A stretch of DNA of 64,000 nucleotides from Octopus vulgaris (Eukaryota), in NCBI GenBank assembly GCA_951406725.2, contig OX597837.1, positions 7,068,001-7,132,000 on the forward strand. The letters are read 5' to 3'. Of the stretch, positions 32,602-53,312 are shown one piece after another (position 1 is the stretch's first letter; every line of letters starts with the position of its first letter). The translations under genes were made by a program, and so were the position numbers. The notes below the pieces were generated by a model. It saw only the letters and a program-made list of their open reading frames with translations. It did not search any database and was not told the origin of the DNA.

Positions 32602-33469
32602 CCTGAAGAACCTTATGCATATATCAGATATATTGAATAAATTAACATAATCACTATGTGCAGCCTTCTTGCTCATTGAATGGAACAGCAGTTATGCATA
32701 CCAAAAGTTGACTTCCTATAGGCAAATATCTATATGTGTGTCTGATACACACAGACGTGCATGTCTGTGTGAATGTGTGCGTGTCTATGAGTGTGTGTGT
32801 GTTTGTGTATGCGTGCGACTGTATATGCATGTATATATGTATGTATCAACATACAAACTAATATTTGCTTATAGAAATATACATTGTATGATTGTATGTA
32901 TGCTTATGTAAACATATACATACATATATATATAAGTAATATATACATACATATATATATTATATACACACACACACGCACACACACACACACACATATA
33001 TATATATAATATTAGGGAGTATAACTCCAAACTTACAGGGGAAAATTCAATTTAGTATTAAATCAAATTTCACAATATAAATACATATACTTAAAAATCT
33101 ATATTTTTTTCTATCAATAAACATATAACCAATAAATAGATTTGTCCATTATTACTTACATAAGTATTATAGATATCTTTAGAAAAAATTTAGGCAATAC
33201 AATTAAAGAATTGAAGAATTTCAAATTAAAAACGTATAGCCTATCTTTATAAAATACTTATTATTACTATTATTAAAAACACTTTACGATCTAGATAGGA
33301 AAGTGACTAACTAATATCTTAAAATTTACATTCAGATATAATAATTAAATAAATGTACATATCTAAATTATCATTAACAAATAATAAAATTATAAATTCA
33401 TATTTAACAATCATTAGTTATATAGAGTACAATACTATTTCTTAAATAAAAAAGTTTACTTATCTCTCA

Positions 33470-33990
33470 AAAAGCGTATCATTTTTCGTCGCCAGAAATG
33501 ATTCGGTAAAGAAATCGTTGCTTGCGTCAATGATTTGAGCGGTGACGAGCAAGCAAACCAGCGGAGATTGTGGCTCGTTGATTTTTTGTTGTCGTCACTT
33601 AAAGCATGCGGAACACATGCTCCATACTTCTGAACCTTTCCCACCGATTGAAGATGCTTCTATATGGCAGTGTGGGAGCATTCCATTTTCTCTGCCAGTT
33701 CCCTTGTCGTTTGACGAGAATATTCGTGCAAAAGTTGGTTAAATCGCTCTTCATCGAACTCAACTGGACGGCCTTAACGAGGTGCGTCTTTGAGGTCAAG
33801 ATTTCCATATTTGAACTTGGCATTCCAATCACGAGCGGTTCTTTCAGCTATGGCACCCTCTTCATACACAGCACAAATGTCGCGAGCAGTTTTTTTACGG
33901 CCTTAGAACCGTGATTAAAATCAAAAAGGTGTCGAAAATACTCGTTTTTCTTAACTTGACATTCTATTTTAATGATCTTATAGAAAATAA
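33470..33990 (-). mobile_element. Mariner transposase, 5' half (pseudogene)
   Basis: Frameshifted ECQVKKNEYFRHL...DLKDAPR*GRPVEFDEE...TTRELAEKM...KYGACVPHALS (WVPHEL-like)...RIISGDEK, which includes the first catalytic D. Confidence 0.9.
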
Positions 33991-34175
33991 ACAAAATCTT
34001 AATGTGTGCGTGTCTATGAGTGTGTGTGTGTGTTTGTGTATTGCGTGCGACTGTATATGCATGTATATATGTATGTATCAACATACAAAACTAATATTTG
34101 CAAAATTATAGAAATATACATTGTATGATTGTATGTATGCTTATGTAAACATATACATACATATATATATTATAT

Positions 34176-34263
<88 letters not shown>

Positions 34264-34270
<7 letters not shown>

Positions 34271-34856
34271 AATAATGAGGGAGATAAATTAATATTAATT
34301 TTAATATCAATTTAAAACCAGTAGTCCAGCATACAAAAAATCTGAGAAGTCAGAGAAAATTCTAATATATGTGTATATTGGCAGGGCTTGACTGCTAGGA
34401 AGTCGGCCGTATGCTAGAAACAGATCATCAACGATCAAACTACAGAGGAAATTCTCTAGAGGAAAAATTCAGCGAACACCAGGACCAAATTTGGCGGGCA
34501 GGACAGATGAAAATTTATATAAAAAACAGAATTAAATGCATACCTCGGTTTCGGCCTTTAACAAAAGAATTACTTACATAATTCAAATGTCCGTGCTTCA
34601 TCAGTGCATTCGTTCATTGTAAATGTAAACTGAAAGCTAACCCCAGCTTTCTGTACCAGGACAGACACGTGCTTAGTCTTACCGATTACATTAGGGATAA
34701 AATTTCAAATGTCTTGGTTCTGGCGCGCTAAGAAATTCCTGAAGCGAAAGGCTGCAGTAAATAATTCACTGTGGTTAGTGCTTACTACTAGAGAACGTAT
34801 TTATTTCAATATTTAAATAATGAGGGAGATAAATTAATATTAATTTTAATATCAAT
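34264..34856 (-). mobile_element. Terminally redundant HHR-bearing element, 545-bp period, in (TA)n
   Basis: Identical 48-bp direct repeats at 34264-34311 and 34809-34856, an internal hammerhead, and (TA)n on both sides. Confidence 0.75.
34535..34610 (-). ncRNA. Type-I hammerhead ribozyme with an extended stem II region
   Basis: AATGCA-CTGATGA-agc...(about 45 nt)...gcc-GAAA-CCGAGG-TA-TGCATT: perfect 6-bp stem I and a GUA site. Confidence 0.8.
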
Positions 34857-34910
34857 ATATATATATATATATATATATATGAAAAAACAAGTCAAAAATA
34901 GAAAATGCTA

Positions 34911-35207
34911 AGATGATTTTATAGTGAATCTTTCAGTACCGGTTTCGGTCATTTTGAGACCTTTTCAACTGTAACGATTAAATAATTAAATTTAGAAAAA
35001 CGACCTCGAATACACAAGTGCAAACAAGGGAGTCAGAGAAAGGCAGAATGCCACCTATATCTGAACACTACTATGGAAGTATTCCTTTAAAAAAACCTTT
35101 CTTCTAATTTTTCTAAATTTTTCTAAATTTAATTATTTAATCGTTACAGTTGAAAAGGTCTCAAAATGACCGAAACCGGTACTGAAAGATTCACTATAAA
35201 ATCATCT
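34911..35207. repeat. Perfect 90-bp inverted repeat; each arm holds a variant hammerhead motif
   Basis: Arms 34911-35000 and 35118-35207. The motif CAG-TTGAAAA-GGTC tcaaaat GACC-GAAA-CCGG-TA-CTG lies at 35147-35184 (+) and 34934-34971 (-). Confidence 0.9.
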
Positions 35208-35284
35208 ACTTCCAAAATTTTAAAAAATGGTGGAAACTTAGTTGACTACCCAATATATAAAACTATATATATCATATATATATA

Positions 35285-35367
<83 letters not shown>

Positions 35368-35403
35368 AAGGCCTATGGAAGATTAGCTTGAAATTTAATC
35401 AAG

Positions 35404-35495
35404 CTGTTGTTCAGAGTTTCACGTTCATCGGACAGTTTTGTTAAAATTTTAAGAAAACTCTCCGATGACCGGGAACGTGAAATTCTGTGTAACAG
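35404..35495. repeat. Imperfect fold-back with CCGATGA...GAAA motifs on both arms
   Basis: cagagtttcacgttcatcgga...tccgatgaccgggaacgtgaaattctg. Confidence 0.7.
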
Positions 35496-35659
35496 ATTTT
35501 GTTATATTTTCTTATTCTTTGAAATGGCCTATTATGGCCGTATCCTTAATTTTGCTGTTGATTTTATTAATGGTCTCTGACTATTTACTTTTTTCCCACT
35601 AGCATCGCTGGTAGCGAAAAAATTCTGCGAAATTTTTTGCCACCCTATATTGATTAATT

Positions 35660-35722
<63 letters not shown>

Positions 35723-35724
35723 TA

Positions 35725-35897
35725 CGACGAGTTTCTTTCAGTTTCCGTCTACCAAATCCACTCAAAAGGCTTTGGTCGGCCCGGAGGCTATAGGAAAAGA
35801 TACTTGCCCAAGGTGCCACGCAGTGGGACTGAACCCAAAACCATGTGGTTTGTAAGCAAGCTACTTACTACTTACCATACAGCCACTCCTACGCCTA
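35725..35897 (-). mobile_element. Family C SINE head
   Basis: cttgcccaaggtgccacgcagtgggactgaaccc...agccactcctacgcc. Confidence 0.85.
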
Positions 35898-36631
35898 TGT
35901 ATATATGTATATATATACATATATGTATATACATACATATATATATATATATTTTATATATTTATATATATATATATGTATTTATGTATAAATACATATG
36001 CATAACATATAAATGTTACGCATGTATATATATATAATATTTATATACGTTTATACGTATACAAACTTCGAAGCACAATTAAAATATATCATTATACAAT
36101 AAAATTTGCTTTCCTCGACAAATTATTTTGTTCTTGAAAATAAAAAAAATTGTAAATTATAAATTGTTAACCAATAAAAGCAATAAAATAGCAACAATCA
36201 CAAACGCTATCTCGACCATGACAACAATAACCACAACAACAAAGCGAACAACAATAACGACAATCACGAACGGAGTTTTGAGTACCAGAAAAATTACAGC
36301 AACAACTAAAGCCATGGCAACCTGTGCGTTGAACAAGTAATCTCGATACGAAAGCGTTATAGGAGACCCAATATCAAATATGATTCCTGAATTTGATATT
36401 CTATGCAGTAGACATATTTTACAAGTCTATACTTGGGTGTGTGTGTGTGTGTGTAGGTGTGGTGGCGATAAAATATATTGACAGACAATAAATAGATGTA
36501 CCTAACACCCTGGAGAAAGAAAAGAAAAACTAACTTTTTCTCTCTCTCTCTCCTGTTTAATATATGAATATATATATGTACATATATATATTCATATATT
36601 AAACAGGAATATATATAAGTACATATATATC

Positions 36632-53099: not shown

Positions 53100-53312
53100 A
53101 TGTGACCTCGTGTGTACCGTTGGCGATTTTTTCCTCTGTCTTCCCTTCTCTGGATCTTTCCTTCTCCTATGTTTCCGACGAAGAGCTCCACTCGAAACGT
53201 TAAACCTTCCTTCTTTCCTTCTTTCCTGAGCGTCCAATAATACTATATTTGTTCCGCGTCCTCGCGTTGTTGTGTTTTTTTGTGTGCTTTCTTGTTTGGA
53301 TTAACTTTATAT
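53100..53312 (+). mobile_element. Family A-related element with an HHR-like motif (53171-53205)
   Basis: GTTT-CCGACGAA-GAGC tcc ACTC-GAAA-CG-TT-AAAC, followed by the shared tttcctgagcg block; in (TA)n. Confidence 0.7.

Follow-up and report, generated by a model that had tools for sequence, protein, structure and literature searches.

The stretch at 34881-35207 consists of two 3' ends, in inverted orientation to each other, of a young Penelope-like retroelement (PLE) with a reverse transcriptase (RT) and GIY-YIG endonuclease, and its U3-A8 hammerhead was inherited from the parent. The stretch at 35363-35665 is an older chimera of two other hammerhead-bearing families, both with broken motifs. 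We give this reading a probability of roughly 0.9. Positions refer to the window, i.e. the whole 64-kb stretch of Octopus vulgaris DNA that was analysed, which is rich in microsatellites and belongs to a genome of 2.8 Gb. The locus is ordinary mobile-element debris and, as a locus, matters little. The parent family (family A) is a useful test case, as it is very young, retains many intact frames and carries a single hammerhead in more than 1,800 copies. In sister families of the same genome, the 3-8 pair is variously C-G, U-A or G-C. Natural single and double changes are at hand for assays of what hammerheads do in PLEs.

Structure of the locus

Table 1. Features of the locus in window coordinates; empty strand cells mark features without an assigned strand.
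Positions	Strand	Feature	Matches
33480-33996		Body of the broken mariner whose end is at 35210	88-89% to 4/4 relatives tested
34001-34251	+	Near-identical duplicate of 32772-33012, ending in (TA)n	
34269-34859	-	Family C: one 545-bp unit and 46 bp of the next (retrozyme-like), with a canonical-core (CTGATGA) type I hammerhead with long stem II at 34535-34610 (-)	
34855-34880		(TA)13 target tract left of element A	
34881-35000	-	Left arm of element A: the terminal 120 nt of the PLE pLTR (3' end), reaching the usual family end and lacking the 40-nt tail	100% identical to the end of full-length copy L073
34934-34971	-	Minimal type I hammerhead, left arm; U3 at 34968, A8 at 34963	
35001-35207	+	Right arm of element A: 207 nt of this pLTR, ending 30 nt short of the family end	100% identical to L073
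35147-35184	+	Minimal type I hammerhead, right arm; U3 at 35150, A8 at 35155, stem II 35157-35171, palindromic ACCGGT 35175-35180, predicted cut after 35181	
35210-35253	+	Terminal end of a mariner-type DNA transposon, fused to the right arm of A	39 other matches of 40 scored
35253-35367		(TA)n tract	
35370-35401	+	Family B2 piece (484-bp tandem unit, retrozyme-like): inside of long stem II	91% to L035
35390-35525		Family B1 (C4-core hammerhead family) head-to-head palindrome, centre 35446/35447, replacing about 140 bp of B2	81-83% to L085 and L093
35404-35435	-	Broken B1 hammerhead: stem II lacks 6 nt, U16.1 changed to C	
35458-35495	+	B1 hammerhead broken by mismatches in all three stems (I, II at 10.1-11.1, and III)	
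35523-35660	+	Second B2 piece	92-94% to L032-L035
35664-35724		(TA)n tract	

Element A is a short head-to-head pair of pLTR ends (Table 1). The initial annotation had described a perfect 90-bp inverted repeat with a TTGAAAA core, a perfect stem II and a palindromic ACCGGT, and this was borne out: 34911-35000 and 35118-35207 are 100% complementary over 90 nt, and the three parts are present in each arm. The 38-nt motif reads, in order, CAG-TTGAAAA-GGTC(7)GACC-GAAA-CCGG-TA-CTG, with a stem II of 4 bp. Numbered after the established hammerhead structure, it has the parts of a minimal type I hammerhead, namely a paired 3-8, G12-A13-A14, A15.1-U16.1, H17, stems I and II, and a palindromic stem III. 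The hammerheads of element A, B1, B2 and C all keep the ordinary type I order of parts. The first descriptor scan of the 64-kb window returned two matches, both of them the A motifs, and no others. In an Rfam scan, the only matches were microsatellite-driven miRNA ones and, for both arms of A, HH9 at a weak 22.9 bits, below the gathering threshold of 52.

Both elements had also been described as (TA)n-bounded. Element A is TA-bounded on the left only, since its right arm is fused to the mariner end. The 30-nt shortfall of the right arm was unique among the family A ends examined. We considered 34881-34910 as a PLE tail and rejected this assignment, because copies of the family normally end with this stretch and the tail extends 40 nt beyond it.

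The parent Penelope-like element

A genome search with the right arm gave 42 matches from the 40 scored of 721 candidates, nearly all of them identical over the first 113 nt. In the 20 longer genomic stretches that were read, the motif flanks long reading frames. The full copy L073 consists of a pLTR with the motif, a 411-aa ORF, a 785-aa frame and a second pLTR with the motif, followed by (TA)n. The 785-aa frame matched RVT_1 (4e-8, above the cut-off) and then GIY-YIG (1.2e-3, below the Pfam cut-off); DKG, a C-x4-C-x2-C linker and C-x2-C...H...H were read in it by eye. All 57 family A protein matches scored were 98-100% identical, which points to a very young family, and 50 of them were without stops. 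The pLTRs are direct in L073 and inverted in L061, L063-L065 and L067. Family A is an EN+ PLE, young and abundant. A PDB sequence search with the RT-EN protein gave 0 matches, and a Pfam search with the upstream ORF gave none.

According to Craig et al. (2021, PMC8557442; this and the other cited papers are used in their accessible parts), a CX2-5CxxC linker and a CCHH motif characterise Neptune and Nematis. From its motifs, family A would belong to one of these two clades. These C-terminal EN+ PLEs resemble family A in the order RT then GIY-YIG, the linker and CCHH, the (TA)n targets, the tandem and inverted insertions, and the 30-40-bp tail at one end. In family A, however, the upstream ORF overlaps the RT frame at T-TTT-TTA; the legend of Fig. 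1 in that paper allows a frameshifted ORF1.

Of 11 full-length readings, some of which cover one and the same place, 10 show a 411-aa frame overlapped by RT-EN in the -1 frame (L073:4093-7618, L141-L170), and T-TTT-TTA was in the overlap in 32 of 32 occurrences. This heptamer is a slippery site, and the overlap is a candidate -1 ribosomal frameshift. No hairpin was predicted downstream of T-TTT-TTA in family A.

The U3-A8 core across copies and families

C3 pairs with G8 in the hammerhead core, and the change of both to U3-A8 had been proposed as compensatory, to be checked by its fixation across copies. A pattern with positions 7 and 8 free gave 1,857 genomic matches to the A motif and 0 for the reversed control, so the motif is more than chance. 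Both changes proved near-fixed: against the 1,857 stood nine deviating matches, counted among copies with an intact CAG flank. Five of the nine lacked U3 (three C3-A8, one G3-A8 and one C3-G8), and four had U3 without A8 (two U3-G8, and two U3-C8 that are the arms of one insertion). Four public runs under four organism labels were inspected, and in all of them every alternative letter stayed below 5% at 35150 and 35155.

Sister families use C-G, U-A or G-C at the same pair. A descriptor with positions 3, 4 and 8 free, run over 1.4 Mb, returned 14 groups, read as 10 families, in which the commonest 3-8 pair was C-G in five, U-A in four and G-C in one, seven of the families having been seen once. 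With a looser scan, 600 kb of evenly placed stretches yielded 15 hits (12 paired), compared with seven in 1.2 Mb of shuffles. On these comparisons of sequence, the reading of U3-A8 as a compensatory change in family A is supported. A further head-to-head element between (TA)n tracts, whose hammerhead core is G3-C8, was noted in L073:1630-2050 and L221.

The variant itself is not new, as natural covariation of this kind has already been published. Perreault et al. (2011, PMC3088659) reported natural U3-A8 cores. For PLEs, Cervera and de la Pena (2014, PMC4209133) tied ~1,300 U3-A8 motifs to a Schistosoma element, gave a U3-A8 Cercyon variant, and described PLE hammerheads that include dual motifs 100-700 bp apart on opposite strands. 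These pLTR hammerheads are similar to that of family A in their location, short stem I, small palindromic helix III and G10.1-C11.1, as well as in the U3-A8 core in over a thousand copies and the dual opposite-strand motifs a few hundred bp apart. Unlike them, family A has a stem II of 4 bp and no extra base after A9, and its copies, those of a young family, are nearly uniform whereas the published ones are heterogeneous. In the accessible literature, we found no report of an octopus PLE hammerhead that describes family A; the work of Lunse et al. (RNA Biol) on PLE hammerhead dimers, cited in the accessible part of PMC6765202, may list closer variants.

One young family A copy, L175 (G000:C13:524776-524809), has the double change back to C3-G8 and otherwise carries the flanks of the young subfamily. 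By hand calculation from the single rates, 3x2/1857 = 0.003 such copies are expected. The one observed hints at selection on the pair, yet it is a single copy. ADAR editing was rejected as its origin, as its 12 substitutions are not A>G-biased.

Within a young family such as A, the near-fixation of U3-A8 reflects descent from one master and not selection on each copy. The hammerhead might then be a dead passenger: U3-A8 would have arisen once, no useful cutting would take place now, and the motif would be carried along as the whole pLTR is copied. Descent from one master fits this explanation, as do the single changes at 3 or 8, which do occur at a few per 2,000, and the near absence of copies beginning at the cut site. 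The accessible texts report that minimal PLE hammerheads cut poorly in vitro (PMC4209133) and that hammerhead mutants were without effect on insertion (PMC11167929). Nevertheless, the motif was retained in older and younger subfamilies that differ around it, all 10 descriptor-found families (seven seen once) have a Watson-Crick 3-8 pair as the commonest form, and the C3-G8 copy exceeds its expectation. We regard a dead passenger as rather unlikely.

Predicted activity of the hammerhead

The hammerhead of the parent family is likely a real ribozyme. Closure of stem III was impossible in the predicted A monomer, and the dimer was predicted at -18.5 kcal/mol, with -8.3 for the ACCGGU duplex. The monomer fold was no more stable than shuffles (z -0.55), which is expected for a dimer-type motif, yet gives no support. 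The parent's RNA would be cut by the hammerhead acting as a dimer; in the tandem layout two hammerheads run in the same direction and could pair through ACCGGU. For the window copy, the models make a functional hammerhead unlikely. Its motifs lie on opposite strands and the whole transcript of element A is predicted to form a 90-bp hairpin of -167 kcal/mol, so the ribozyme would be hidden.

We searched family A for copies in which the one position preceding the predicted 3' cleavage product is not A, and obtained five matches: three point changes (two of them the arms of one insertion), one inversion junction and one true start. One family A copy, L264 (G000:C8:78190303-78190333), starts exactly at the predicted cut site. 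Judged from starts at this one position, the genome appears to be without a clear footprint of cutting. The rarity of copies starting there is in line with the report by Frangieh et al. (2024, PMC11167929, accessible part) on PAc, a Poseidon of Anolis, in which hammerhead cutting was protein-assisted and unneeded for insertion in vitro. The PAc hammerhead also depends on a 3-8 pair, comparable to that of family A.

Insertion into (TA)n tracts

Among 16 inverted insertions of family A, 14 were plain at one end and bore a 40-nt tail at the other, one was tandem, and one was the window copy. The 77 distinct family A ends comprised 46 that were plain and followed by TA repeats, 26 classed as tailed (a few of them actually tandem), one tandem and four others. 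Both tail boundaries coincide with short AT-alternating motifs inside the element, 40 nt apart, which suggests that these motifs pair with the (TA)n target. PLEs are characterised by inverted pLTRs carrying a tail of 30-40 bp on one side only (PMC8557442, PMC3846280), and the PLE tail has been linked to two internal reverse-transcription starts (PMC11167929). As in PAc, the tail of family A would correspond to the stretch between two such starts; those of PAc, according to the accessible text, are not homologous to the target, whereas the putative starts of family A match (TA)n.

Element A was likely laid down by target-primed reverse transcription into the (TA)n tract, with early strand inversion. 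The family A endonuclease would nick (TA)n, and reverse transcription would begin internally at either of the two AT-alternating motifs, just behind the hammerhead. The two alternative starts would give one plain and one tailed end, and copying would halt early and then invert. Since the right end of the window copy is without the expected tail, we infer a deletion there. It would have taken the last 30 nt of the right arm, the tail and the flank, and fused the arm to the mariner end.

A broader proposal, which we put forward tentatively and consider possible, though short of probable, is that family A is a currently mobile, Neptune-type element, with a U3-A8 hammerhead selected on RNA, that locates (TA)n when the nicked target pairs with one or the other of two short UA-alternating motifs, spaced 40 nt from each other, in its own RNA. 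If this is true, the PLE tail is a product of homology-guided double priming, and dozens of intact copies make a ready system for testing what PLE hammerheads do.

Families B1, B2 and C

The second stretch, 35363-35665, had been taken for a single element. It is a chimera, in which a B1 palindrome is set into a B2 unit (Table 1). The imperfect fold-back with CCGATGA...GAAA described after element A is present at 35401-35498, with 75% self-complementarity and the motif on both strands; as they stand, neither of these hammerhead-like motifs can form the hammerhead fold. Intact stems and A15.1-U16.1, absent from both, are kept by other B1 copies. With the B1 motifs broken, ribozyme action in the chimera is unlikely. 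The B1 insert is trimmed, and the 140 bp of B2 that it replaced held the second half of the B2 hammerhead motif; intact B2 units carry CTGATGA...GAAA with a long stem II. Both B1/B2 junctions overlap by microhomology. They were spanned by the window's own copy only (1 of 55 and 1 of 43 matches), and a family consisting of the chimera itself was rejected on this ground. No bridging piece for the B1/B2 junctions was present among the public contig pieces listed, and none of B1, B2 and C could be linked to a protein-coding parent.

The B1 motif had 1,724 genome-wide matches, of which the first 100 listed mostly read CCGACGA. This C4 core was also seen in another common family, at 53175 in the window and in L204, L220, L221 and L225, which makes C4 the prevailing state of at least two families. 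The change U4C is a known natural variant, weaker, and was cited for a viroid with lowered activity (PMC3088659). The variants of Perreault et al. thus include U3-A8, as in A, and C4, as in B1, but in the accessible text U4C is that of a viroid, whereas C4 here is the majority state of a large repeat family.

The long inverted repeats and TA flanks of both stretches, together with several B1 copies that have the palindrome centre of the window, could suggest fold-back DNA elements of MITE type, which would insert into TA as palindromes and resemble hammerheads by coincidence. This is refuted for A by inverted insertions with about 200 to 4,400 bp between the motifs, leading into the RT-EN frame. 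In B1, most of the first 100 listed matches were without an inverted partner among those listed and the paired ones differ in centre; the loci with a shared centre had been chosen for their likeness to that of the window. We consider such an origin very improbable.

Families B2 and C are built of tandem units, each with a type I hammerhead. On sequence, they resemble the non-LTR retrozymes (Cervera and de la Pena 2020, PMC7229834; bioRxiv 10.64898/2026.07.22.740005), likewise non-coding tandem units with a canonical-core type I hammerhead. They differ in that their units (545 bp in C, 484 bp in B2) exceed the 150-450 bp quoted in the accessible texts, and in their long stem II with mostly mispaired 10.1-11.1, which we observed in L035, L054 and L113.

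Local rearrangement and crowding of hammerhead families

Among the relatives of 35210-35253, 9 of the 11 shown continue into sequence like 33480-33996, and L248 encodes a piece of a mariner-like transposase. The assignment to mariner is a probable one, made from motifs. Between the mariner body and its end lie the duplicate of 32772-33012, family C and element A. The duplicate at 34001-34251 differs from 32772-33012 only in short indels and repeat runs. In the simplest history, C and A would have inserted into the (TA)n of a local duplication, and the fusion of A to the mariner end would then have come from a deletion. No bridging piece for the junction of A and mariner was present among the public contig pieces listed. 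The duplication and the mariner split around C and A reflect either a recent rearrangement or a mis-assembly.

That the crowding is in part an artefact of an assembly joining two haplotypes is compatible with the near-identity of the duplicate and with the split mariner. Still, the junctions are not at homologous sequence, and both arms of A are letter-perfect family copies; we judge such an artefact quite unlikely, a little more so than a true hotspot.

The initial annotation had counted three hammerhead families within 1.4 kb and proposed a local insertion hotspot. There are four families (A, B1, B2 and C). A true hotspot, with hammerhead-bearing elements homing to one another, would explain such a number: with a background of seven elements of the four families in 600 kb of evenly placed stretches, a Poisson estimate gives about 4 triples and about 0.02 quadruples within 1.4 kb, counted genome-wide. 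In addition, PLEs are said to insert beside earlier PLE copies (PMC6765202, accessible part). However, the flanks of 116 family loci (373 kb, some overlapping) held three other-family elements, which is the background rate and speaks against general clustering, although this locus is nonetheless unusual. It had moreover been chosen for its crowding, and deletion and duplication have altered the distances. We find a hotspot unlikely; the crowding is real but partly due to deletion and rearrangement.

Two further repeats border these features. The AT-rich stretch 33013-33479, between a (TA)n tract and the mariner body, is probably another repeat, and 35725-35900 belongs to a common short interspersed repeat that is matched at several other places in the window.
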